From an uncultured Spirochaetota bacterium (GTDB taxonomy: Bacteria > Spirochaetota > Spirochaetia > SZUA-6 > Fen-1364), in NCBI GenBank assembly GCA_963820525.1, contig CAWGAA010000001.1, forward strand, positions 2,048,001 through 2,112,000: a stretch of 64,000 bases of DNA. The letters are read 5' to 3'. The position numbers and the translations under genes were made by a program. The first letter of the stretch is position 1, and each line of letters begins with the position of its first letter. Below the pieces are notes generated by a model. That model was given only the letters and a program-made list of their open reading frames with translations. It had not been told where the DNA came from and made no database searches. Positions 39,285 through 54,473 of this stretch are shown piece by piece.

Positions 39285-39671
39285 TTAGCTCTCCGGAGCC
39301 CGCTTACCGTGGATACGCGGGGTTGGCGTCTTTCTCGCGGGGGACGGTAGCTTTTTAAGAAGGCGATCGGTGACGCGCAACGACATCCTCTCCATTTGAG
39401 CGATGATTCTGTCCAGTTCGCGGCCGGTGGCAACCCAGACGGCGAGAAGGTCGGCCTGTTCGCGCGTCAGGCGGACTGTGACGGTTTTTCCATCCACCTT
39501 GCGGGTCCACTGGTAGTAGGGACCGTGAAGGCGGGGCGGAGAAGCTTGGCAGGCGCAGCCGGGCTTGCCGCAGGCCATGAAGCGTTTCAGCAAGGTGCCA
39601 CGGCGGAAATAGCCGACTCGGCTGAGGGCGCGCTGGAGCTGCTGGTAGTTTTGCGGAAGATCGGTTTTCAT
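39285..39671 (-). CDS. DUF6788-like Cys/His small protein
   Basis: RGTL...CGKPGCAC...HGPYYQWT.K..GKT motif. Confidence 0.8.
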   Translation of the reverse strand: MKTDLPQNYQQLQRALSRVGYFRRGTLLKRFMACGKPGCACQASPPRLHGPYYQWTRKVDGKTVTVRLTREQADLLAVWVATGRELDRIIAQMERMSLRVTDRLLKKLPSPARKTPTPRIHGKRAPES

Positions 39672-39682
39672 AGAAATATATC

Positions 39683-39710
39683 TTGACAGAAAACTGTCTA
39701 CAGTTATAAT
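39683..39710 (+). promoter_or_regulatory. Consensus sigma70 promoter for the transposase, overlapped by a palindrome
   Basis: TTGACA-16-TATAAT; gacag-aaaa-ctgtc at 39685-39698. Confidence 0.7.
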
Positions 39711-40912
39711 ACTGTTAGATATGTTGCCCGTCAAGCTTCCCCGGCGTTGGTTTTTCTCCCGGATCCTCGCTTCGATGTGCGTGTGCGTCTTTCTCGGCCT
39801 GGGCATCTTGATCTTCTCCAGCGCCCCCTCCATGGCAGCCGCCGATAGAGCAATCGTTCCCCAGGAGGTTCGTCGTCCATGCAAACCACTTCTGCCAGTG
39901 CCAAGCGCCAACCCGCTCTGATTCCCAGGTCTATGCGCCCGACCATCTCCATCGCGGAGGACCACAGGCTGGTCCAAATGACCGACACCCTGGACTGGAC
40001 AGAAATGGAGGAGCAAGCCCAGCAGATACGATCCGCCAAGCTCAAGAACGCCGCTGGGCGGCCGCCGCACCTGCGCGCCTTGCTGGGAGCTATGCTGCTG
40101 ATGGCCACCCGAAAGCTGACATACCGGGAGGCCGAGGACTTGATCTGCTACTACGCCCCAGCGCGCTACTTGTGCGGGCTGACCGAAACGGAGTGGACCC
40201 CGGACTTCACCACCATCCAGGACTTCACCGAACTGATGGGCGAGCAGGGGATCAAGCTCATCAATCAATGCGTGGTGCAAATGGCGGTGAAACAAAAGTT
40301 GGCAGATCCCAAGACACTGGTGGCCGACACCACAGCGCAGGAAGCGGCGATCCCCTATCCCAACGAGATGGGGCTCATGGCCGGCTTTCTGACCTCGGTG
40401 GCTGCCGCAACCCGAAAAGTTGGCCGAGCGCTGAAGGGATTCGTGCAGGAGACGGTGAGTCAATTCGAGGCGGCCAAGAAGAAGGGGCGAGAGTACCGCC
40501 TGTTCGCCAAGACCAAGGAGAGCAAGGATCGGGTGATGGGGCAGATGATCGCCATCGTCAAGAAGCTCAACGAGCATCTGAGCAAGGCGCTGGGCGCCCC
40601 TGCCGCACAGTGGGAAAAGCTACGCAAGCATGCAATTGTGGCCAAAAGCAAGCTGGTTCAGTTGCAGGAAACGATGAGCAAACTGATCCCGCAGATCCGC
40701 TACTGGATTCGCACGGGCTGCGTGGCCAGCGGCAAGATCATCAGCCTGCATATCCCGCAGCTCTACAGCATCGTACGCGGCAAAGTGGGCAAATCGGTGG
40801 AGTTTGGGCTGAGCTGGGGCATCAGGCGACTGGCGGGGGGTACCTGCTGGCCACGCTGGCCCCGAATCGCCGCGAGTTACAGGACACGAAGTTCGCGGTG
40901 CGAGCGGTCAAA

Positions 40913-42836
40913 CCCATCTTCGACACTTTGAAAAATGAAATGTTTACCCTATAAGGAATTAGAAGACACGAAAATTCTGTTGGCACTACAGATCAACTTC
41001 CTCCGTGGTAGCTCTTATTCGCGAACCGTCTGCGGCACTGCGACACCCGCGGCCTGCAATACTGTGTGGCACACCCCCCGCAGGTCGGTGCGCAGATATA
41101 GCTTTTTGCCATGCATTTCCACTTCCACCTCCTGCAGTGCTCGAAGGTCCCTATTGATATCCGCCCACTCCAGCTTGTCCCCGTGCTTCTCAAGTCTAGT
41201 TTCCAGCTCTTTTCGTAGAACAAGGGCGAGGAAACTGCAGAACACGTGGCCGCGGATCGTGTCGTCAACTTTATGATAGATCGGGCGGGTCTCCAGAAGG
41301 CTCTTGGCCGAACGGAATATCGATTCCACCATCCACAGCTGCTTGTACTTCAGTGCCACATCCGCGGCGGAAAATGCGGTGTTGGTGCGAAGCACCCACA
41401 TGCCGTCGAAGAGTGCCTCCTCGGAGAGCTTGGCCTCGTCGACGGTGAAGTGCTCCTTTCCCGCGGACTTCAGGTATCGCCTGTAGCCCTTGTTGCCCAC
41501 GAGACTCTTGTCCCCGCTTTTGAGCTTCTCTTTCAAAGACTCCACGATGGCCTTTCTGTCCGCGGCATCCTTTCGGGCCTGATCCTCGTTGTAACACACG
41601 ATGTAACGCCTATCCCCCACCCACTGCTCCCGCACCGATAGGGGGGAGGGATCCCCTGCCTTCTTCTTCTCTCCTGTGACTACTTGGAACTTCTCAGAGG
41701 AAGGAAGCACTTCATCGCGTACCGTCTTGTCCTTGTGCATGCGCGCTCCCAGGATGTAGGACATGCCAAGCTCATCAGTTTCAAGTTTCTCGATCGTCTC
41801 TGCGCTTATCATCCCGCGGTCTGCCACCACGCACACCGAAGCGATGGCGAAGCGGCTCTTCAGTCGCTGGACCACAGGGATGAGAGAACTGACATCGGTA
41901 AGATTGCCTGGCCACAGCTCGCAGCAAATCGGCCGCCCAGTGCCGTCCAGCACCGCGCCGACCACCATCTGTTTCAGGTCGGGTCTGTGGTCCTTGCTGT
42001 GCCCGTACTGTCCCAGGCTTTCTCCCCCTTGCCCCTCGAAGTACAGGCTCGTGGTGTCGAAGAACACCAGCTCCAACTCGCTGAACAGATCGCGGTTACG
42101 GCGAAAAAGCTCCTCTTCGATGAGGTCACTTTCGGCATCGCAGGCTTCGCGCATCATGGCCGAGCTGGATGCTCTGTTCTCCCAGCCAGCCCATGGCGCG
42201 GTAGAGGTGATGAAGCTCGATTCCCTCTGTCCCGCTGATCTGGAAATCCTCTTTCCAGCGCTCTGCCGCGCGGTCGCTTCCCGGATCGAAGAGGCGGTGC
42301 AGCACGGTGAGGAAGATCGCCCGTTCCAAGGAGAAGCGCCATGAGCGAGCGGCCACTTGGCCCTTTATCGCCTCTTTGATCCCCAACTGCTGCCACAATC
42401 GGTCGAAGAGAAGGGCGGGACCGATGGACAGTGTGCGGTGCGCTTGGATGGTGCCCTCGCGGTGAGCATCGATGATCGTTCGAATCGAGGAGAACTTCGC
42501 CAGCGATCGGGTGAGGGCATCGATCTTGCCTGATGCGGTGAGTGCATCCAGTTGGCCGAGGGTGGTGAGGACACGTTGTTTGACCTTTTTGCCCTCACGC
42601 TTGCTTTCAACGATCTGAAGGTACTTGTATCCGTGCGAGTTCTTGATGCGGACGAACATTGCCTGCCCCCCCTCTACGGATACTACCATGAAGATGGCAT
42701 CTATGCAAGTATTTTCTTCATAAATTGCCAATTCCGTGGCACTACATAAAGTGGTCCGGTTGTAAAAAAACCTTCAAATTCCCTGCAAATTCGAGGGGTA
42801 CGGCTTCCTGGAGACGCTCAAAGTGTCGAAGATGGG
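40913..42836 (-). mobile_element. IS1634 copy A, TCAAA target duplication
   Basis: TIR cccatcttcgacactttg at both ends; TCAAA at 40908-40912 and 42837-42841. Confidence 0.93.
41015..42659 (-). pseudogene. IS1634 transposase with a +1 frameshift near 42127
   Basis: cgaaagTgacc here versus cgaaaggacc in copies B and C. Confidence 0.85.
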
Positions 42837-43407
42837 TCAAAGACCACATCGCGCTCTTTGGCAAGGCGCCGCTGGCTTATGCCTACGACCGTGGTGGATA
42901 CAGCGCGGAGAATGTCTCCACCTTGAAGAAGTTGGGGGTCAAGGATGTGGGACTGGCCCCCCGTGGACGTACGCAGTGGTCGGTAAGCGGGCCGGTGCGC
43001 GACCGGCTGGTCAGAGAGAGGGCAATGGTGGAGGCGGGAATCGGCACCATCAAGAGCCCGAGATACGGGTTCAATCGTCCAGCTGCTCGTTCGGAGGCCA
43101 TGATGGGAGCGTGTGGGCAGCGCGCTGTGTTGGGATTCAACACCAACAAGCTGATCCGCGAACTTGCCGGGCGAAAGGGGATGACGCTGAACGGCTAACG
43201 GAATACGGGACGCCTGGTCACGAGACTGACAGTGCACCAGCGGGGTACGCACACAAGACACACAGCGCACCGGAAGGCGCGACATAGGTCCGCGGCCCGT
43301 CGAACACCGAGCCAACGGGCGCCTGAATTACCCGACAAACTGTAGCTAATATAAAACCCATCGAATGCAATTCAAGCTTATGTCGCGGTAAATCCCCGAA
43401 TCATTGC

Positions 43408-43544
43408 CTATAACGTCCCGCCAGTATGCGACGTGGGCTGAGGCCCAACAAGGGCCGAAGCCCATGTGGCGGAGCGGCGCGCTGCAGCGCCGCGGAGTCC
43501 GAGGCGCCCGTCAGGGCGCCGATGCACATTACGGGCTGTTGTGG
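43408..43544 (-). other. attC-like integron recombination site
   Basis: On the - strand CCACAAC...GTTATAG with internal IRs; near-identical to 46114-46250. Confidence 0.75.
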
Positions 43545-43566
43545 GCCGTTGCACCTCTCACTATTG

Positions 43567-45488
43567 CCCATCTTCGACACTTTGAGCGTCTCCAGGAAGC
43601 CGTACCCCTCGAATTTGCAGGGAATTTGAAGGTTTTTTTACAACCGGACCGCTTTATGTAGTGCCACGGAATTGGCAGTTTATGAAGAAAATACTTGCAT
43701 AGATGACCTCTTCATGGTAGTATCCGTAGAGGGGGGCAGGCAATGTTCGTCCGCATCAAGAACTCGCACGGATACAAGTACCTTCAGATCGTTGAAAGCA
43801 AGCGTGAGGGCAAAAAGGTCAAACAACGTGTCCTCACCACCCTCGGCCAACTGGATGCACTCACCGCATCAGGCAAGATCGATGCCCTCACCCGATCGCT
43901 GGCGAAGTTCTCCTCGATTCGAACGATCATCGATGCTCACCGCGAGGGCACCATCCAAGCGCACCGCACACTGTCCATCGGTCCCGCCCTTCTCTTCGAC
44001 CGATTGTGGCAGCAGTTGGGGATCAAAGAGGCGATAAAGGGCCAAGTGGCCGCTCGCTCATGGCGCTTCTCCCTGGAACGGGCGATCTTCCTCACCGTGC
44101 TGCACCGCCTCTTCGATCCGGGAAGCGACCGCGCGGCAGAGCGCTGGAAAGAGGATTTCCAGATCAGCGGGACAGAAGGCATCGAACTTCATCACCTCTA
44201 CCGCGCCATGGGCTGGCTGGGAGAACAGAGCATCCAGCTCGGCCATGATGCGCGAAGCCTGCGATGCCGAAAGGACCTCATCGAAGAGGAGCTTTTTCGC
44301 CGTAACCGCGATCTGTTCAGCGAGTTGGAGCTGGTGTTCTTCGACACCACGAGCCTGTACTTCGAGGGGCAAGGGGGAGAAAGCCTGGGACAGTACGGGC
44401 ACAGCAAGGACCACAGACCCGACCTGAAACAGATGGTGGTCGGCGCGGTGCTGGACGGGGCAGGGCGGCCGATTTGCTGCGAGCTGTGGCCGGGCAATCT
44501 TACCGATGTCAGTTCTCTCATCCCTGTGGTCCAGCGACTGAAGAGCCGCTTCGCAATCGCTTCGGTGTGCGTGGTGGCAGACCGCGGGATGATAAGCGCA
44601 GAGACGATCGAGAAACTTGAAACTGATGAGCTTGGCATGTCCTACATCCTGGGAGCGCGCATGCACAAGGACAAGACGGTACGCGATGAAGTGCTTCCTT
44701 CCTCTGAGAAGTTCCAAGTAGTCACAGGAGAGAAGAAGAAGGCAGGGGATCCCTCCCCCCTATCGGTGCGGGAGCAGTGGGTGGGGGATAGGCGTTACAT
44801 CGTGTGTTACAACGAGGATCAGGCCCGAAAGGATGCCGCGGACAGAAAGGCCATCGTGGAGTCTTTGAAAGAGAAGCTCAAAAGCGGGGACAAGAGTCTC
44901 GTGGGCAACAAGGGCTACAGGCGATACCTGAAGTCCGCGGGAAAGGAGCACTTCACCGTCGACGAGGCCAAGCTCTCCGAGGAGGCACTCTTCGACGGCA
45001 TGTGGGTGCTTCGCACCAACACCGCATTTTCCGCCGCGGATGTGGCACTGAAGTACAAGCAGCTGTGGATGGTGGAATCGATATTCCGTTCGGCCAAGAG
45101 CCTTCTGGAGACCCGCCCTATCTATCACAAAGTTGACGACACCATCCGGGGGCACGTGTTCTGTAGTTTCCTCGCCTTGGTTCTTCGAAAAGAGCTGGAA
45201 ACCAGACTTGAGAAGCAAGGGGACAAGCTGGAGTGGGCGGATATCAATAGGGACCTTCGAGCACTTCAGGAAGTGGAAGTAGAAATGCATGGCAAAAAGC
45301 TGTATCTGCGCACCGACCTGCGGGGGGTGTGCCACACGGTATTGCAGGCCGCGGGTGTCGCAGTGCCGCAGACGGTTCGCGAATAAGAGCTACCACGGAG
45401 GAAGTTGATCTGTAGTGCCAACAGAATTTTCGTGTCTTCTAATTCCTTATAGGGTAAACATTTTATTTTTCAAAGTGTCGAAGATGGG
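43567..45488 (+). mobile_element. IS1634 copy B, flanks do not match (TATTG / CTTTA)
   Basis: Same TIRs as copies A and C. Confidence 0.93.
43743..45386 (+). CDS. IS1634 family transposase
   Basis: FFDTTSLYFEG, GHSKDHRPD, VADRGM, LETRPIYH. Confidence 0.95.
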   Translation: MFVRIKNSHGYKYLQIVESKREGKKVKQRVLTTLGQLDALTASGKIDALTRSLAKFSSIRTIIDAHREGTIQAHRTLSIGPALLFDRLWQQLGIKEAIKGQVAARSWRFSLERAIFLTVLHRLFDPGSDRAAERWKEDFQISGTEGIELHHLYRAMGWLGEQSIQLGHDARSLRCRKDLIEEELFRRNRDLFSELELVFFDTTSLYFEGQGGESLGQYGHSKDHRPDLKQMVVGAVLDGAGRPICCELWPGNLTDVSSLIPVVQRLKSRFAIASVCVVADRGMISAETIEKLETDELGMSYILGARMHKDKTVRDEVLPSSEKFQVVTGEKKKAGDPSPLSVREQWVGDRRYIVCYNEDQARKDAADRKAIVESLKEKLKSGDKSLVGNKGYRRYLKSAGKEHFTVDEAKLSEEALFDGMWVLRTNTAFSAADVALKYKQLWMVESIFRSAKSLLETRPIYHKVDDTIRGHVFCSFLALVLRKELETRLEKQGDKLEWADINRDLRALQEVEVEMHGKKLYLRTDLRGVCHTVLQAAGVAVPQTVRE

Positions 45489-45573: not shown

Positions 45574-45864
45574 GTGACATATATACGCTTCACTTGGGAC
45601 CAAAAGAAAAGCAAAGCGAATTATGAGAAGCACGGTATATCTTTCGAAGAAGCCAAATCAATTTTCTACGACCCGGCTGCACGTCAAATTTATGATCCAG
45701 ATCATTCAGCTGATGAAGATAGATTCATCATGCTCGGAATGAGTCATAAGTTAAGGGTCCTTATAGTTTGTCATTGTTATAGGGAGAAGGAAGAAAAAAT
45801 CAGGATTATATCTGCACGCAAGGCAACTGCTGTTGAAACACGTCTTTATGAGAGGAGGAGATAA
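45574..45864 (+). CDS. brnT: BrnT family toxin (RelE-like ribonuclease)
   Basis: FTWDQKKSKANYEKHGISFEEA, EDRF, IRIISARKAT. Confidence 0.92.
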   Translation: MTYIRFTWDQKKSKANYEKHGISFEEAKSIFYDPAARQIYDPDHSADEDRFIMLGMSHKLRVLIVCHCYREKEEKIRIISARKATAVETRLYERRR

Positions 45865-45865
45865 T

Positions 45866-46087
45866 ATGAGAAAGGAATATAACTTCGATAAATCTATAAG
45901 AAATCCGTATTATCGTAAGCTGAAAAAGCCCATATCGATCCGGCTTGACGCAGAGACAATCGAGTATTTTAAAAAATTGTCCGAAGAGACGAATATCCCG
46001 TATCAAAATTTGATAAATAGCTATTTATCAGAATGCGCTTCAAAGAAGCTGAGACCGACACTGCATTGGATGAAACGAGGCGCATAG
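45866..46087 (+). CDS. BrnA/CopG-type antitoxin
   Basis: MRKEYNF...KKPISIRLD..TIEYFK...PYQNLINSYL. Confidence 0.88.
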   Translation: MRKEYNFDKSIRNPYYRKLKKPISIRLDAETIEYFKKLSEETNIPYQNLINSYLSECASKKLRPTLHWMKRGA

Positions 46088-46113
46088 AGATTTAAGAAAG
46101 CTGGCGCAATGTC

Positions 46114-46250
46114 ACACAACGTCCCGCCAGTATGCGACGTGGGCTGAGGCCCAACAAGGGCCGAAGCCCATGTGGCGGAGCGGCGCGCTGCAGCGCCGCG
46201 GAGCCCGAGGCGCCCGCAAGGGCGCCGAAGAGCATTACTGGCTGTTGTGG
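46114..46250 (-). other. attC-like integron recombination site
   Basis: On the - strand CCACAAC-agccagtaatgc...gcatactggc-gggac-GTTGTGT; L boxes pair with one extrahelical base. Confidence 0.8.
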
Positions 46251-46272
46251 GCCGTTGCACCTCTCACTATTG

Positions 46273-48195
46273 CCCATCTTCGACACTTTGAGCGTCTCCA
46301 GGAAGCCGTACCCCTCGAATTTGCAGGGAATTTGAAGGTTTTTTTACAACCGGACCGCTTTATGTAGTGCCACCGAATTGGCAGTTTATGAAGAAAATGC
46401 TTGCATAGATGGCCTCTTCATGGTAGTATCCGTAGAGGGGGGGCAGGCAATGTTCGTCCGCATCAAGAACTCGCACGGATACAAGTACCTTCAGATCGTT
46501 GAAAGCAAGCGTGAGGGCAAAAAGGTCAAACAACGTGTCCTCACCACCCTCGGCCAACTGGATGCACTCACCGCATCAGGCAAGATCGATGCCCTCACCC
46601 GATCGCTGGCGAAGTTCTCCTCGATTCGAACGATCATCGATGCTCACCGCGAGGGCACCATCCAAGCGCACCGCACACTGTCCATCGGTCCCGCCCTTCT
46701 CTTCGACCGATTGTGGCAGCAGTTGGGGATCAAAGAGGCGATAAAGGGCCAAGTGGCCGCTCGCCCATGGCGCTTCTCCCTGGAACGGGCGATCTTCCTC
46801 ACCGTGCTGCACCGCCTCTTCGATCCGGGAAGCGACCGCGCAGCAGAGCGCTGGAAAGAGGATTTCCAGATCAGCGGGACAGAGGGAATCGAGCTTCATC
46901 ACCTCTACCGCGCCATGGGCTGGCTGGGAGAACAGAGCATCCAGCTCGGCCATGATGCGCGAAGCCTGCGATGCCGAAAGGACCTCATCGAAGAGGAGCT
47001 TTTTCGCCGTAACCGCGATCTGTTCAGCGAGTTGGAGCTGGTGTTCTTCGACACCACGAGCCTGTACTTCGAGGGGCAAGGGGGAGAAAGCCTGGGACAG
47101 TACGGGCACAGCAAGGACCACAGACCCGACCTGAAACAGATGGTGGTCGGCGCGGTGCTGGACGGCGCTGGGCGGCCGATCTGCTGCGAGCTGTGGCCAG
47201 GGAACCTCACCGATGTCACCTCCCTTATCCCTGTGGTCCAGCGACTGAAGAGCCGCTTCGCAATCGCTTCGGTGTGCGTGGTGGCAGACCGCGGGATGAT
47301 AAGCGCAGAGACGATCGAGAAACTTGAAACTGATGAGCTTGGCATGTCCTACATCCTGGGAGCGCGCATGCACAAGGACAAGACGGTACGCGATGAAGTG
47401 CTTCCTTCCTCTGAGAAGTTCCAAGTAGTCACAGGAGAGAAGAAGAAGCCTGGGGATCCCTCCCCCCTATCGGTGCGGGAGCAGTGGGTGGGGGATAGGC
47501 GTTACGTGGTCTGTTACAACGAGGATCAGGCCCGAAAGGATGCCGCGGACAGAAAGGCCATCGTGGAGTCTTTGAAAGAGAAGCTCAAAAGCGGGGACAA
47601 GAGCCTCGTGGGCAATAAGGGCTACAGGCGCTACCTGAAGTCCGCGGGAAAGGAGCACTTCACCGTCGACGAGGCGAAGCTCGCGAAGGAGCAGCTGTTC
47701 GACGGCATGTGGGTGCTGCGCACCAATACCGCGTTTGCCGCCGCGGATGTGGCACTGAAGTACAAGCAGCTGTGGATGGTGGAATCGATATTCCGTTCAG
47801 CCAAGAGCCTTCTGGAGACCCGCCCGATCTATCACAAAGTTGACGACACTATCCGGGGGCATGTGTTCTGCAGTTTCCTCGCCCTTGTTCTACGAAAAGA
47901 GCTGGAAACGAGACTTGAGAAGCACGGGGACAAGCTGGAGTGGGCGGATATCAATAGGGACCTTCGAGCACTTCAGGAGGTGGAAGTGGAAATGCATGGC
48001 AAGAAGCTGTATCTGCGCACCGACCTGCGCGGGGTATGCCACACGGTATTGCAGGCCGCGGGTGTCGCAGTGCCGCAGACGGTTCGCGAATAAGAGCTAC
48101 CACGGAGGAAGTTGATCTGTAGTGCCAACAGAATTTCCGTGTCTTCTAATTCCTTATAGGGTAAACATTTCATTTTTCAAAGTGTCGAAGATGGG
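46273..48195 (+). mobile_element. IS1634 copy C, TATTG target duplication
   Basis: TIRs; TATTG at 46268-46272 and 48196-48200. Confidence 0.93.
46450..48093 (+). CDS. IS1634 family transposase
   Basis: Intact, near-identical to copy B. Confidence 0.95.
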   Translation: MFVRIKNSHGYKYLQIVESKREGKKVKQRVLTTLGQLDALTASGKIDALTRSLAKFSSIRTIIDAHREGTIQAHRTLSIGPALLFDRLWQQLGIKEAIKGQVAARPWRFSLERAIFLTVLHRLFDPGSDRAAERWKEDFQISGTEGIELHHLYRAMGWLGEQSIQLGHDARSLRCRKDLIEEELFRRNRDLFSELELVFFDTTSLYFEGQGGESLGQYGHSKDHRPDLKQMVVGAVLDGAGRPICCELWPGNLTDVTSLIPVVQRLKSRFAIASVCVVADRGMISAETIEKLETDELGMSYILGARMHKDKTVRDEVLPSSEKFQVVTGEKKKPGDPSPLSVREQWVGDRRYVVCYNEDQARKDAADRKAIVESLKEKLKSGDKSLVGNKGYRRYLKSAGKEHFTVDEAKLAKEQLFDGMWVLRTNTAFAAADVALKYKQLWMVESIFRSAKSLLETRPIYHKVDDTIRGHVFCSFLALVLRKELETRLEKHGDKLEWADINRDLRALQEVEVEMHGKKLYLRTDLRGVCHTVLQAAGVAVPQTVRE

Positions 48196-48219
48196 TATTG
48201 CAAATCTTTATAGCCCTTA

Positions 48220-48792
48220 TCAAGGAAGCTCAGGAAGACCTATCCGTGATAAGTAATTGCAGAACCTCAACGAAAGCTCTTCTCTGAATAGTTCTGATAC
48301 AGAAGCTATATAGCAGATTTTATGTATTAGGATGAATGATTCAAATGGTAAAGTCAAATAATGCTTGAAATCAAGAACTAGATCTGGAATCGGCAAGTCA
48401 CCTGTTTGACCTTTTATAAAGTGATATCGTTGATCCCGGTTTTGCTTAACATAACCCCATCTTTCAGAATTGAGTCGATCTTGCTTAATATTAAAAGCAT
48501 CTACGAGATGATCTCCAGACCTAAAGCTATCACCGAGAAAGCACGGAGCTATAAGAATATTCGGCAGGTATTGATTATTTGTTATGATACCTGCAGGTTG
48601 TCCATTTCGATCTGAATTGCTTTGCTCGAGATCGCAGTCTTGGCTCAACACAATCATGTAAGGATAGGTTATTTGAAGGACAGCGCTATTTACATCAATT
48701 ACATCGAGTTTCGCGTCACGTAATATGTCACCTTGGCATATCCGAGACTTGTCATGTCGTGTGAACCGCGTTAATACGTTACTTTTCCACAC
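48220..48792 (-). CDS. Hypothetical protein with PemK/MazF-like motif spacing
   Basis: CQGDIL...PYMIVLSQDCDL...ILIAPC...LVLDF...YLSRIGLP. Confidence 0.7.
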   Translation of the reverse strand: MWKSNVLTRFTRHDKSRICQGDILRDAKLDVIDVNSAVLQITYPYMIVLSQDCDLEQSNSDRNGQPAGIITNNQYLPNILIAPCFLGDSFRSGDHLVDAFNIKQDRLNSERWGYVKQNRDQRYHFIKGQTGDLPIPDLVLDFKHYLTLPFESFILIHKICYIASVSELFREELSLRFCNYLSRIGLPELP

Positions 48793-48961
48793 GGCCTATA
48801 ATTTTCTTTGTCACTTTCACAGTTGGATAGTGCGAACTATCAATAACATGGGATGGTTGCATTTTAGCACTTGAAGAGGGTTTTGTTGTTGGTGCTTTTG
48901 AATTTGTTTTAGATTCAGAGAAGTACTCCGAACTAGATGATGAACTAGTCTTTGCCGGCAT
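48779..48961 (-). CDS. Small Ser/Lys-rich peptide overlapping both neighbours
   Basis: 60 aa; overlaps the upstream stop and downstream start; GGGG SD-like sequence upstream. Confidence 0.55.
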   Translation of the reverse strand: MPAKTSSSSSSEYFSESKTNSKAPTTKPSSSAKMQPSHVIDSSHYPTVKVTKKIIGRVEK

Positions 48962-49718
48962 TTGTTACCCCCATTAGTGTCCGCAAAGGTTCTTTTATAG
49001 AATTCTCAAAGAGCTCCTGAATCGACCTATTAAATTTGCGTACTTGAGCAGGAATATCAGACGAAACATCTTGCGAGTAGCAATCATAATCAAGAATATA
49101 TTGACGGCGAGTTATTTTGGCTGGGAATTCCGGATTGAATATTCCATAATTGCAAACTATTTGATATTCATCTTTGTTTAAAGCATATTGGCCCATTGTT
49201 CTTGAAAGATATTGAATGTTCTCTCCAAAACCGCTATTAGAGCATGTTAGAAAGTCCGAGATATATTCTGCCCAATCGAGCGGATTGCCATCTTTCAGAT
49301 TTATTGTATTTATATATCTGAGCCCAATCCTTGTATAATCAGGCTTTGGGTATGCCGAAGCAAAAGCTTGAACAATAATTTGAATTCTTTCCAAGTATTC
49401 TTCAAGCGATGTATAATGGAAGTCTTCAATTGCGAGAAAAGAGTAATTCAGTGTTAGTTTGAATCTTTCAGATTTGTCAAGGATGATCCAGCTTGTTATT
49501 GGAGCGGCGATACTCCCCTGTGGAGTACCATCCTTGATCTCTGCCCTATATTCGAATCCTTTTTCCTCTTGTAAAACGGGCATCTGAATGCGAATTGACT
49601 CATGGAATTGAGGAGAAATTTTCTCCCTAAGAACAAGGATAGGATTGTAGTCTATACGAAAAATGACATTTGAGAGAAAATTATTACTGTACTTGATTTT
49701 ATTGAGATCAATATGCAT
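48945..49718 (-). CDS. TIGR04255 family protein
   Basis: YSNNFLSNVIFRIDY, YTSLEEY, RIGLRYIN.I, ILDYDC, LFENSI pattern. Confidence 0.85.
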   Translation of the reverse strand: MHIDLNKIKYSNNFLSNVIFRIDYNPILVLREKISPQFHESIRIQMPVLQEEKGFEYRAEIKDGTPQGSIAAPITSWIILDKSERFKLTLNYSFLAIEDFHYTSLEEYLERIQIIVQAFASAYPKPDYTRIGLRYINTINLKDGNPLDWAEYISDFLTCSNSGFGENIQYLSRTMGQYALNKDEYQIVCNYGIFNPEFPAKITRRQYILDYDCYSQDVSSDIPAQVRKFNRSIQELFENSIKEPLRTLMGVTNAGKD

Positions 49719-49884
49719 TGAAATAGTCTCTCTGTTCCGCTGCAAGTTGTTTCTTCAAATAAAATGATCAATAAATGATAGATCATCAAGCGGTCCGTAT
49801 TTCCTTTTCGAGTCAATAGTTATCTGATTATGTTTTTGCATATGCCACTTTTCAGTATGTTATTCAATGTGCCTGTGCAATGGC

Positions 49885-50080
49885 CCACAACGTAAAGGGT
49901 TTACGACATGCCCCGTCCCGAAGGGCTGGCACAGGGGTTGCCCCCGCAAAACATAGACAAGAGTGTACCACACATCTTAGAGGACCGTAAGAAGATTTGA
50001 TCTGCAAGCCCTGTGCCAGAGGGGCATGTGGCGAAGCCCGGAGCGACCGGAGGGAGCGGAGCGTAAACCCTATGTTGAAT
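49885..50080 (-). other. Long (196 bp) attC-like site
   Basis: On the - strand ATTCAAC...GTTGTGG; nested IRs agggtttacg/cgtaaaccct, catgcccc/ggggcatg, ctggcacaggg/ccctgtgccag. Confidence 0.75.
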
Positions 50081-50110: not shown

Positions 50111-51262
50111 TTAGGCGCTGTTCCAATAACTATTAGAGGCCTCTTCCGGCGGAAGTTCAATGATTTGTATATTCACACTATTGCAGCGCGGACATCGTTT
50201 TCCAATGATCTCGGGCGCTTCCAAGAAAAAATCATACGATCGCTGTTGAGATTCTAGATCGATGCATAACAAACGACGGATGTATTTCAGATTTTCATTT
50301 TTGTGCCCGTTGCTCAAGAGGCCGTAAAATCGTATACGCTTGAATCCTTCCGGCAGCACATGCAGGAGAAATCTTCTCATGAACTCGGAGGAGCCAAGTG
50401 TCATTACCTTTTTCCGGTTTTTATCCCTGTAGTCCTTCCAGATAAAGCTTACATTTCCGCCGGTGAAATTCAAAATCCGTTTGTTGCTGATCGCTACCCG
50501 ATGCGTATATCGCCCTATATATTTCAGTACACGTAACGGATCGGAAAACGGCTTTTTGGCATAGACGACCCACCTTCTTGCATAACACGTATCCAACAGC
50601 TTTGCAAACTCGGCTGCCTACTCTGTCTTAAGCGACTTGCCAAAGAAACTCAACTCTTTTGCTGCATATGCCTGTTTCAAATAATGCAGGTATTTACCTC
50701 TGAACAATCGATTGAGAATGTGTATCGAGATAAAGAAATTGTTCCTGCTTTCAATCCATGCGGATTTATCCCGGCTCAATCCCCCTCCGGTAACAATGCA
50801 GTGCAGATGTGGATGGTCAAGTAAGTTTTGGCTCCAGGTGTGGAGAATGGCGATAAACCCGATCTTCGCGCCGAGATTCTTCGGGTTTCCCGCAGCTTCT
50901 TGAAGAGTTTCGTTTGCGGCGCGAAAGAGAATGTCGTAGAGCACTCTTTTGTTCTGGAGAATAAGGGAATTCAATACCGCCGGGACGGTGAAGACGATAT
51001 GGAAATATTTTATGGGCAGAAGCTCTTGTGTCCGCTCGTAAACCCATTGCGCCTGCTTGCTCGCCTGGCATTTGGGGCAATGCCGGTTCCTGCATGAATT
51101 ATAGGATATCTGTTCATACCCGCATTCATGGCAAACAAATTTATGGCCGCCCAATTTCGGACCGCGGCAGTTTATGATTGCGTTTACGACTTTCCACTGA
51201 TCATAACTGATGCCTTCCAGTAACTGAGTGCTTTGTCTGAAAACATCGGCGACTTTTATTAT
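50111..51262 (-). pseudogene. IS91-like (HUH, Zn-binding) transposase with in-frame TAG; native start not identifiable
   Basis: SCRNRHCPKCQ, YFHIVFTVP, HTW...HPHLH, YIGRY, RFLLHVLP.GF.RIRFYG; TAG at 50618-50620. Confidence 0.88.
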
Positions 51263-51267
51263 GTCGG

Positions 51268-51372
51268 TCCGCTGCGCTGTCCCGTCTGCGGAAACAGGAT
51301 GTCCGTGATCGCCCTCATGCGCTATCCCGCAGAGAACCGGACCATCATCGCCCGACCGTCTCGTCACCACCC
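51268..51372 (+). pseudogene. C-terminal fragment of a second IS91-like transposase
   Basis: Hand translation PLRCPVCGNRMSVIALMRYPAENRTII resembles the PLxCPxCGxxMxIIA tail. Confidence 0.5.
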
Positions 51373-52055: not shown

Positions 52056-54473
52056 ATGAGCGGATACCCCGCAGGCGACATCGAACGCAAGTGGCAGCAC
52101 TATTGGGAGAAGAACAAGACCTTCGGCGTCACCGAGGACCCCGCCGTGCCCCGGGATCGGCGCAGGTACGTCCTGGACATGTTCCCCTACCCCTCATCGG
52201 CAGGCCTCCACGTCGGCCACCCCGAAGGCTACACGGCCACCGACATCTATTGCCGCTTCCTCAGAATGAAGGACTATCACGTCCTGCATCCCATGGGCTT
52301 CGACTCCTTCGGGCTCCCCGCCGAAAACTACGCCATCAAGACGGGCACCCACCCACGCGTTTCCACGGAGAAGAACATCCAGCGCTTCACCTCCCAGATA
52401 AAGGCGCTGGGCTTCTCCTACGACTGGGACAGGCGCCTCTCCACCCACGAGCCGGAGTACTACCGCTGGACCCAGTGGATCTTCCTCAAGTTGTGGGAGA
52501 AGGGCCTCGCCTATGAAGCGGAAGTGCCCATCAACTGGTGTCCCTCGTGCCTCACCGGCCTGGCCAACGAGGAGGTGAAGGACGGGCGCTGCGATCGCTG
52601 CGGCACCCCGGTGACGCGCAAGAACCTCCGCCAGTGGATATTGAGGATCACGGCATACGCGGAGAAGCTTCTCTCGGGCCTGGACAAGCTGGACTGGTCG
52701 GAATCCCTGAAGCTCATGCAGAGGAACTGGATCGGCCGAAGCGAGGGGGCCAACGTCCACTTCACCCTGGAGGGCAGCGGCACGATCGAGGTCTACACGA
52801 CGCGGCCCGACACCCTTTTCGGCGCCACCTACATGGTGCTCGCCCCCGAGCACCCCCTGGTGGAGAAGATCACCGCCGCCGGGCAGAGAAAGGCGGTGGA
52901 GGGCTACATCAAGCAGGCCTCGATGAAGTCCGATCTCGAGCGGACGGAGCTGGCCAAGGAGAAGACGGGCGTATTCACCGGGGCCTTTGCCCTAAACCCC
53001 ATGAACGGAAAGAAGATCCCGGTGTGGATCTCGGATTACATCCTCATCTCCTACGGCACCGGCGCCATCATGGCGGTTCCCGCCCACGACGAGCGGGACT
53101 TCGAGTTCGCGACCAAGTTCGGCCTCCCCATCGTGCAAGTCGTTTCAAAAGACGGGAGCCTCTACAAGCTCACCGAAGCGGAGGTGCTTGACGGCATCGC
53201 CGTCAACTCGGGGGAGTTCGACGGCCTTCCCACGGTGGAGTTCAAGAAGCGGATCGTCGAGTGGCTGGAGGCCAGGGGCATCGGGAAACGCGCGGTGAAC
53301 TACAAGCTGCGGGATTGGATCTTCTCCCGGCAGAGGTACTGGGGAGAGCCCATCCCCATCGTCCACTGCCCCGCGTGCGGCCCCGTGGCGGTGCCGTACG
53401 ACGAGCTTCCGCTGAGGCTCCCCGAAGTGGCCACCTACAAGCCGACGGGGACCGGTGAATCTCCCCTTGCTACCATTGAAGAGTGGGTCAACACGAAATG
53501 CCCGAAGTGCGGCGAGCCCGCAAAGCGGGAAACAAACACGATGCCCCAGTGGGCCGGCTCCTGCTGGTATTACCTGCGTTACCTCGATCCGAAAAACGAC
53601 ACGGCGTTCGCCGGCCGTGACAAGATCGATTACTGGATGCCGGTGGACCTGTACGTGGGCGGGGCGGAGCACGCCGTGCTCCACCTCCTGTACTCCCGCT
53701 TCTGGCACAAGGTCCTCTTCGACATCGGCGTCGTGAACTCAGACGAGCCCTTCATGCGCCTTATCAACCAGGGAATGATCCTGGGCGAAGGCGGGGTGAA
53801 GATGTCCAAGAGCCTGGGAAACGTCATCAACCCCGACGACATCATTGCCGAGTTCGGCGCGGACTCGATGAGGGTCTACGAGATGTTCATGGGCCCCCTG
53901 GAGGTCTCCAAGCCCTGGTCCACGCGGGGAATCGCCGGGGTGAAGCGCTTCCTCGACAGGGTTTGGCGCATGTCGGAGCTCCCCCTCACGGAGGAGGAGC
54001 CGCCCGAGGCCCTTGTCAAGCTCCTGCACAAGACCATCAAGAAGGTGAGCCAGGACACGGAGAAGCTGGAGTTCAACACGGCCATCGCCCAGATGATGAT
54101 CTTCGTGAACGAGACGAGCGGCCTGGGGAAGCTTCCCCGAAATCTCTGGGAGCCGTTCGTGCTCCTGCTTGCCCCTTACGCGGCGCACCTGGCGGAGGAG
54201 CTGTGGGAGAAGATGGGCCGCTCCCCGTCCGTGGGCCGCCAGAAATGGCCGGATTGGATCGAGGCGCTCACCGCAGAAGACCTGGCCGAGGTCGTGTTTC
54301 AGATCAACGGAAAGATCAGGGCAAAGGAAAACCTCCCCGTCGGGCTCTCGGGGGAGGAGCTCAAGACAAAGGCCATGGCCAATCCGCGCATCAAGGAGCT
54401 TCTGGACGGCAAAGAGGTGCGGAAGGTCATCACGGTGCCGGGCAAGCTGGTGAATATCGTCGCGAGCCTTTGA
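52056..54473 (+). CDS. leuS: Leucine--tRNA ligase
   Basis: [41 protein letters not shown]. Confidence 0.99.

Follow-up and report, generated by a model that had tools for sequence, protein, structure and literature searches.

Three intact, overlapping open reading frames (ORFs) on the minus strand were found in a 64,000-nucleotide (nt) stretch of the genome of an uncultured Spirochaetota bacterium (assembly GCA_963820525.1, contig CAWGAA010000001.1, positions 2,048,001 to 2,112,000; hereafter the window). The genes, named A, B and C in the order of reading, encode a protein of the TIGR04255 family, a small protein and a protein of an unnamed family. Do these genes act together, and do they form a toxin-antitoxin (TA) system? 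The reading preferred here, with a probability of roughly 0.55, is that A, B and C constitute a self-contained, horizontally mobile three-protein module of the TA type, which resembles the toxin-antitoxin-chaperone (TAC) systems in its logic. The gene order, the conservation of the trio, the folds of the models and the modelled interface form the basis of this reading; the toxicity of C, its neutralisation by B, the lability of B and the role of A were inferred from them.

Layout and identity of the three genes

All coordinates are positions within the window, and the features of the trio lie on its minus strand (Table 1). Genes A and B overlap by 17 nt, genes B and C by 14 nt. An upstream TTG at 49745 is an alternative start of gene A and would yield a protein of 266 amino acids (aa; 48945..49745). 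The GC content was 0.36-0.41 across 48200-49799 versus 0.52-0.62 in the flanks. Three overlapping intact ORFs in one AT-rich cassette had been claimed in the initial annotation of this DNA, and this was borne out by the ORF listing and the GC profile. The assignment of the 257-aa protein A to TIGR04255 was confirmed by a full-length match to the NCBIfam model (E 1.1e-30; 107.3 bits, cut-off 30; profile positions 1-252 of 252). A single TIGR04255 copy was present in the genome, a six-frame search giving the same match as the protein search. Gene C sits last behind a small overlapping gene, which is the usual antitoxin-toxin order.

Protein A had no Pfam match at E<=1, SecB included, and neither B nor C matched any Pfam, NCBIfam or PADLOC model at this threshold. 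As a check for an already named system, A, B and C were compared with the named and candidate systems of PADLOC-DB 2.0.0 (2023 release); none of the three proteins matched (0 families at E<=1).

Conservation of the trio

One genome per species was scanned with an alignment of 12 closer C sequences as query, which yielded 68 loci with a relative of C. These loci span many bacterial phyla and the archaea, the archaeal hosts including Methanothrix, Methanoperedens, ANME-2, Methanobrevibacter, Nanoarchaeota and Aenigmatarchaeota. Of these 68, 65 had a relative of A immediately upstream in the same orientation. In the remaining three, the 3' end of an A-like frame was recognised by eye just upstream of B: one locus begins at a contig end (L006), one retains only the 3' end of A (L002), and in the third A was missed by phmmer (L044). 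The A-B-C trio is a widely conserved, unnamed module. A decayed copy was also noted, with the TIGR04255 gene in two pieces (L043:1953-2649). In a Methanoperedens metagenome-assembled genome, the trio is flanked by a phage portal gene (Phage_portal_3, E 8.3e-31) on one side and a DUF2213 gene on the other, which may place it inside a provirus (L014:2387-6980).

The gap between A and C measured 87-316 nt in 43 loci of the closer clade and was occupied by an ORF of 39-115 aa. As a control, stop-free frames were counted across this gap in the same 43 loci. On the strand of the trio, 41 of them had exactly one open frame, and all remaining frames of that strand were closed (0 open). On the opposite strand, 10 of 129 frames were open, the GC content of the gap going down to 0.18. 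The two exceptions were loci in which B stops before C begins (L034, L043). In a distant clade (L044-L067; 23-32% identity to C), the middle frame was longer, very roughly 100 aa as judged by eye, and likewise appeared to end in a short strand-like tail.

An alignment of the B proteins gave a C-terminal motif of roughly ID..Y.K....K.lgYV.KQD. The conserved tail of the window's B, residues ~40-60 with the sequence HYPTVKVTKKIIGRVEK, fits this motif. The N-termini shared no similarity across the B proteins; they were of low complexity and had no conserved Cys/Ser/Thr pattern. The small middle ORF between the TIGR04255 gene and the gene with the QGD and SQDCD motifs, the conservation of which had been put forward as a check, is conserved in place, size and C-terminal motif. 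Four N-terminally extended relatives of C (P0022, P0074, P0195, P0237) were considered as B-C fusions and rejected; they contained no B-like sequence and look like over-extended frames.

Copies were also sought outside chromosomes. The plasmid collection yielded a single record. On a Methylocystis iwaonis plasmid, the Prokaryotic Genome Annotation Pipeline had annotated a TIGR04255 protein followed by overlapping hypothetical proteins of 70 and 192 aa, and this trio adjoins an 'abortive infection family protein' and a recombinase. The window's AT-rich cassette lies between attC-like hairpins and beside a BrnT/BrnA pair (see below), and this plasmid copy lies beside an abortive-infection gene. 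In ~13 of 42 loci, restriction-modification, TA, phage or integrase genes were counted within the two nearest genes per side, a figure that is the analyst's reading without a background control. Such a context is typical of mobile TA modules.

Predicted fold of protein C

A word-indexed search yielded 1665 relatives of C at E<=0.001, all annotated as 'hypothetical' and without Pfam domains. When a C profile was run against 1.84 billion cluster representatives (50%-identity clusters), 2048 were matched at E<=0.001, of which 994 reached E<=1e-10 and 295 reached E<=1e-30. A search of the ESM Atlas returned unnamed clusters only. In an alignment of 34 C sequences the residues Q20 G21 D22, Q51 D52 C53 D54, G93 and R122 were invariant, as were D141 F142 K143, Y161, E171 and R183, and His residues were nearly invariant besides the invariant Cys. 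The QGD, SQDCD and ILIAP motifs pointed out in the initial annotation are real, QGD and QDCD being invariant in all 34 sequences.

The AlphaFold model of C had a predicted local distance difference test score (pLDDT) of 88.4 and a predicted template modelling score (pTM) of 0.83. In a Foldseek search against the PDB, all listed matches were MazF-type toxins or CcdB (best E 4.9e-4), and the best match reached a template modelling (TM) score of 0.61, normalised to the target. VIA-align, an independent comparison with all representatives, agreed: the top 11 rows were MazF, Kid, CcdB or other toxins of TA pairs (Z 9.3-7.1), and 93-111 residues were aligned to chains 94-118 residues long; the top row had Z 9.3, with 111 residues aligned of a 115-residue chain at a root-mean-square deviation (rmsd) of 3.4. 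Ranks 12-15 were the type III toxins CptN, ToxN and AbiQ (Z 6.5-4.2), and the next row, which is unrelated, scored 3.4. According to this model, C has a MazF/Kid/CcdB-fold core of ~110 residues, two insertions and a conserved residue set of its own.

Model of the A-B-C complex

The complex was modelled with three chains from custom alignments, B being scored as the partner, and three controls were included. The score was 0.70 (runs 0.75, 0.70 and 0.70), versus 0.02 for the best control. AlphaFold-multimer modelling of the trio had been suggested as a check, and the three-chain model passed its controls. This mark was reached in the tool's calibration by 116 of 157 solved complexes and by 2 of 215 mismatched pairs, counts that are only rough here because three chains and user-supplied alignments were used. 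At least 68% of the contacts agreed between runs, and the pLDDT of B was 51.

In the model, the contacts of B were confined to residues 40-60. Residues 50-56 of B would pair with residues 38-44 of C, a beta-strand in the C model, and would also contact residues 83-89 and 95-100 of C. Residues 42-48, which include the conserved Tyr45, were placed against residues 134, 136, 138, 190-198 and 204-212 of A, Tyr45 itself against residues 136, 194, 208 and 210. For A, conservation was derived from an alignment of 63 C-linked proteins and 17 with other partners; Y102, L133-R134-Y135-x-N137, D210, D212 and F237 were conserved in both sets. The modelled interface of A includes or adjoins the family-wide conserved R134, Y135, N137, D210 and D212.

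MazE-MazF complexes exist for the MazF fold, and no complex like the modelled one is known to have been solved. Searches of PDB sequences with single proteins and profiles gave nothing meaningful, neither A nor C having a relative there; it is therefore unlikely that the modelling reproduced a known complex, the MazE-MazF complexes notwithstanding.

Other operons with TIGR04255 genes

In a 401-genome sample from the same phylum, 27 genomes, that of the window among them, encoded TIGR04255 proteins above the cut-off. A further 28 TIGR04255 loci were fetched and 26 were analysed; two were dropped as no A ORF was recovered by the profile (L094, L097). In all 26, A was followed by two same-strand genes (three in L087 and L096), which overlapped or lay a few bases apart. 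The genes downstream of A varied between loci, the middle and the last one alike. The last gene belonged to the C family by profile in four loci (L080, L083, L084 and L091, weak, E 1.3e-3), and in another four (L074, L076, L079, L095) it was C-like by eye (QGD... S.TCD). It was a DUF7689 gene in three loci (E down to 1.5e-44) and a PIN gene in two (L086, E 1.5e-13; L075, split into two ORFs). Four last genes belonged to a 93-99-aa family without a Pfam or NCBIfam name, and nine encoded proteins of 128-159 aa without a family name. The middle proteins were 67-225 aa long. Most partner proteins (L071-L098) had no Pfam or NCBIfam match, and at least five unrelated operon types were distinguished.

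Five of the nine loci with 128-159-aa last genes were scanned with PADLOC. Two middle genes matched PDC-M32A (E down to 2.5e-7) and one last gene PDC-M32B (E 7.5e-8), the matches being in L073, L087 and L090. The middle genes aligned only to positions ~263-359 of the 375-position PDC-M32A profile, and no TIGR04255 protein matched PDC-M32A. With the PIN and PDC-M32B last genes, the slot of C elsewhere holds a classical toxin domain and a defence-candidate protein, while A is constant. No paper naming the module, TIGR04255 or DUF7689 was found in an open-access library.

By eye, the 93-99-aa last genes had been taken as HicA-like and their partners as HicB-like; this assignment was rejected, as searches of Pfam, NCBIfam and the PDB sequences gave it no support. 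No fusion of A to other domains was found among proteins of 451-2000 aa, which is weak evidence. Decayed copies were observed in two of these loci, namely a PIN gene in two ORFs (L075:2591-2992) and a TIGR04255 gene with an in-frame TAA (L085:1480-2187).

Proposed mechanism

In the proposed mechanism, C would be the effector, presumably a toxin. B would be a neutralising or adaptor protein, the conserved 20-residue C-terminal tail of which may bridge A and C; its N-terminal 40 residues, hypervariable and poorly ordered, may be the protease-sensitive part. A would have a general accessory role and keep hold of the middle protein, in much the way of the SecB-like chaperone of TAC. Loss of B, or its release from A, would then free C. 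The initial annotation had proposed a toxin, an unstable antitoxin and a chaperone or sensor; this interpretation is supported, as all computational checks suggested with it turned out in its favour: the fold of C, the conserved frame of B, the lack of a PADLOC match and the complex model, to which the PIN domain in the slot of C can be added.

Tentatively, and at a probability somewhat below even, a wider conclusion was considered. TIGR04255 may be the common hub of a large and so far undescribed class of three-gene TA or defence systems in Bacteria and Archaea. Its conserved pocket (R134, Y135, N137, D210, D212) would grip a tyrosine-bearing segment of the middle protein and thereby control at least five unrelated effector families (QGD/SQDCD MazF-fold, PIN, DUF7689, PDC-M32B-like and 93-99-aa proteins). 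The trio of the window would be the minimal form of this class, with a middle protein that retains only a disordered stretch and the 20-residue bridge.

Results weighing against the module reading

Several results speak against a TA-type module. At the sequence level, the PemK profile PF02452 did not match C at E<=1, and a six-frame search of the genome with PF02452 matched only a different locus. The alignment of 34 C sequences was compared with 14 PemK domains by hhalign, which gave a probability of 0.57% and an E-value of 0.1 over 21 columns; the sole stretch aligned was the 'NILIAP' segment. C lies outside the PemK family as defined by sequence and is MazF-like by its predicted fold only. 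Of the PemK/MazF likeness proposed in the initial annotation, the part that concerns the fold stood in a confident model, and the sequence-level link did not (PF02452, hhalign). A common fold of C and MazF is no proof of a common function. The invariant polar cluster of C (D22, Q51-D52-C53-D54, R122, D141-x-K143, E171, R183) looks unlike that of MazF, so the chemistry of C could be that of an RNase, of a gyrase poison or another one. As this acidic and Cys-containing cluster seems to differ from both MazF and CcdB, C may be neither kind of toxin.

Protein B has no DNA-binding domain detectable with Pfam or NCBIfam at E<=1, unlike typical type II antitoxins. In the control in which A was replaced and B and C were kept, the score was 0.02 and B was no longer confidently placed; this supports a ternary arrangement and leaves a simple B-C pair alone unsupported. 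No A-binding motif common to the middle proteins of different operon types was demonstrated, the best single score being 4.2 bits and the summed score 11.3 versus 2.7 +/- 2.2 (maximum 8.2) in 60 shuffles.

The model of A (pLDDT 93.3, pTM 0.89) consists of two tandem halves, each with a sheet and a helix. Its fold matches were weak and mixed, comprising TBP, AdoMetDC and relatives, and the catalytic domains of McsB and phosphagen kinases, all at Z<=7.4, and they name no function. Since such scores are in a range that can be explained by a common arrangement, no function was drawn from the fold.

A tblastn search of the phage collection gave no match. A pattern scan of IMG/VR gave 58 pattern matches and no relative, a result limited to the scan patterns and therefore weak evidence. 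The neighbours of the trio in other genomes were analysed by comparing 150 flanking ORFs from 42 loci with Pfam. Most of them were housekeeping genes, as is expected of a small mobile insertion.

Alternative readings

One alternative is an abortive-infection or phage-defence system in which A is the sensor. The pocket of A would normally hold the tail of B, and a phage product or infection cue that displaces or destroys B would free C. This reading overlaps with the TA reading, from which it is set apart by the biological role and by A acting as a sensor in place of a chaperone. A constant component combined with variable effectors is a common design of defence systems, partner genes in some TIGR04255 operons match the PADLOC candidate PDC-M32, and the plasmid copy adjoins the 'abortive infection family protein'. 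In L011, L012, L025 and L031, the trio has restriction-modification genes as neighbours (EcoRI, type I, GmrSD, NgoFVII/Z1). On the other hand, A, B and C themselves have no PADLOC match, and most neighbours are housekeeping genes. A defence role with A as sensor was considered rather unlikely.

The properties of A bear on two further alternatives, both of which were judged improbable. In one, A would be an enzyme whose target is either a small ligand or the conserved tyrosine of B; the target would be chemically modified in the pocket around R134, D210 and D212, which would control the hold of B on C. The structural alignments of A that extended furthest (181-189 residues, Z 7.3) were with the catalytic domains of McsB arginine kinase and phosphagen kinases, and the pocket with its invariant Arg, Asp and Asn is kept across the family whatever the partner, with Tyr45 of B modelled into it. 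A Z of 7.3 is, however, within the range of a common arrangement, similar scores were obtained with TBP and AdoMetDC, and no nucleotide-binding motif was found in A by any profile (Pfam, NCBIfam).

In the other, A would be a DNA-binding autoregulator of an otherwise two-component B-C pair and would provide a function absent from B, for which omega in omega-epsilon-zeta and PaaR in PaaR-PaaA-ParE are parallels as third-gene regulators. In favour of this, A is encoded first, B lacks a DNA-binding domain, and the fold of A is similar to the saddle of TBP (Foldseek E down to 2.2e-4; VIA Z 6.4, 166-173 residues aligned). The TM-scores against TBP were low, however (0.25-0.44, with an rmsd >10 Å), the conserved surface is the pocket filled by the tail of B in the model, and a length of 257 aa with invariant Arg and Asp is unusual for such regulators.

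A non-toxin housekeeping or peptide-maturation module, in which A and C would process B as a precursor with a recognition tail, was given very little credence: the hypervariable part beside a conserved tail modelled in contact with both larger proteins, together with the invariant Cys and nearly invariant His residues of C, would suit it, but the conserved unit contains no transporter or further maturation gene, the middle proteins elsewhere are 67-225 aa long and a PIN nuclease can occupy the last position, the distribution is sporadic with mobile locations, and the variable part of B is of low complexity without a conserved Cys/Ser/Thr pattern.

Comparison with known systems

The TA-type module was compared with described systems. 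An example of TAC is the HigB-type toxin, antitoxin and SecB-like chaperone of Mycobacterium tuberculosis (PMC9098466). The trio resembles TAC in its three, presumably co-transcribed genes and in a neutralisation that would need a dedicated third protein in addition to the antitoxin; in the model, A would hold a short segment of the middle protein (B 42-48). One helper family serves several toxin families in TAC, and this has a counterpart in the TIGR04255 operons. The differences are that A belongs to TIGR04255, with tandem sheet-plus-helix halves, and not to SecB, that A is encoded by the first gene and the TAC helper by the last, and that the presumed toxin is predicted to have a MazF fold and the middle protein has 60 aa without a DNA-binding domain. 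Since A is not SecB, the trio is not a member of TAC.

With MazEF, Kis-Kid and CcdAB, the trio would share the fold of the toxin (Z 9.3-7.1), the small upstream overlapping gene and, as modelled, the tail lying on the toxin. It differs in the length of C (190 aa) with its two insertions, apparently other invariant residues and no sequence relation, in a B protein without a DNA-binding domain, and in the obligatory third gene. ToxN, AbiQ and CptN belong to the same fold superfamily as predicted for C (Z 6.5-4.2). These toxins are neutralised by tandem-repeat RNAs, whereas the operon has no such repeat and a conserved coding frame instead; type III-style tandem repeats were absent from the operon in a repeat search, and an Rfam scan gave nothing relevant.

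Panacea (PanA) is described as a hyperpromiscuous antitoxin domain with many unrelated toxin partners (PMC8832971). TIGR04255 is similar in being one conserved domain with many partners. PanA, however, is itself the antitoxin of two-gene systems. TIGR04255 constitutes an additional, third protein, in the operons of which the last gene changes along with the middle one. Finally, matches to PDC-M32A (middle genes) and PDC-M32B (last gene) occurred in one group of TIGR04255 operons (L073, L087, L090), whereas B and C of the window have no match to PDC-M32.

Possible cassette setting and neighbouring elements

Both borders of the cassette consist of long imperfect hairpins ending in CACAAC...GTTG. 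The element on the side of gene A begins with GTGCAATGGCCCACAAC; read in reverse complement, this box equals the terminal part of the element on the side of gene C except for one mismatch. The latter element had 17 matches in the genome, and a 95% identical copy lies at 43412-43554. Most matches of this 157-nt repeat form a cluster on contig 3 (831-891 kb), next to two partial matches to integron integrase at 825.8-826.6 kb; another small cluster was observed on contig 1 at 3085-3095 kb. A full-length intI gene was found at contig 1:1954228-1955157 (448.6 bits, cut-off 265), 94 kb before the start of the window. With this one (1954 kb), contig 1 has two full-length integron integrases, the other being at 682 kb. 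An integron-cassette setting of the trio is plausible, the orientation of the array being ambiguous.

Table 1. Coordinates of the trio and of the adjoining features in the window.
Feature	Position	Strand	Remarks
Gene A, TIGR04255 family	48945..49718	-	257 aa; ATG at 49718 chosen from homologue fit
Gene B, small protein	48779..48961	-	60 aa; variable Ser/Lys-rich N-terminus, conserved C-terminal tail
Gene C, unnamed family, predicted MazF/Kid/CcdB-type fold, presumed toxin	48220..48792	-	190 aa; GTG start
AT-rich leader upstream of A, presumed promoter region	49719..49874	-	156 nt
attC-like imperfect hairpin, gene A side	49875..50080		DNA fold -47.7 kcal/mol, z -5.84, 0/200 shuffles as good
attC-like repeat element, gene C side	46104..46260		157 nt; DNA fold -49 kcal/mol, z -4.81, 0/200 shuffles
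Insertion sequence with DDE transposase ORF 46378-48093	46262..48195	+	Pfam DDE_Tnp_1, E 3.6e-12; between C and the 46104-46260 element

In the leader, a single promoter-like site was detected at 49855-49827 (CTGAAA-17-CATAAT, 9/12). In the promoter scan upstream of A, this score was not above the expectation from shuffled sequences. A leader of ~170 nt with room for its own promoter had been proposed; the leader exists, its length is 156 nt, and the promoter-like site is no better than shuffles. A palindrome was also seen by eye in the leader sequence.

The insertion sequence (IS) between C and the attC-like element carries perfect 19-nt terminal inverted repeats (46273-46291 and 48177-48195). 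A second copy is present upstream, a 300-nt stretch being 94% identical. At 43380-43640 and at 46090-46350, one of the IS copies directly follows an attC-like copy, with the identical junction GTTGTGGGCCGTTGCAC CTCTCACTATTG. Either the IS targets the attC-like site, or attC and IS were duplicated as a unit.

The adjoining cassette (45574-46087, plus strand) is AT-rich, encodes an intact BrnT toxin (Pfam E 5.2e-29) and a BrnA/CopG antitoxin (E 3.1e-7), and has the 46104-46260 attC-like element after it. Most neighbouring cassettes had been described as disrupted; the area is indeed full of IS elements, but this next cassette is intact.

On the other side, an IS91-type transposase was found in two minus-strand ORFs at 50111-51370, one with Zn_Tnp_IS91 and the N-terminal part of Y2_Tnp and one with the C-terminal part of Y2_Tnp. 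This split gene beside the cassette border is probably a frameshifted pseudogene. Upstream of the cassettes, a 430-aa ORF with a DUF6788 domain (39285-40577) and a further DDE transposase (41015-42157) are located, both on the minus strand. Mobile elements abound over the whole stretch of 39-51 kb, up to a leucyl-tRNA synthetase gene at 52056.

Significance

If the TA-type reading is true, it would provide the first function for TIGR04255 and for the unnamed MazF-fold C family. It would also add a second, independent design of a helper-dependent TA system beside the SecB-based TAC. A 60-aa B protein with a 20-residue bridge is a small and tractable model for the control of a toxin by a third protein. 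Placed on a predicted MazF fold, the invariant D/C/D/K set of C hints at a chemistry that may be undescribed for this fold.

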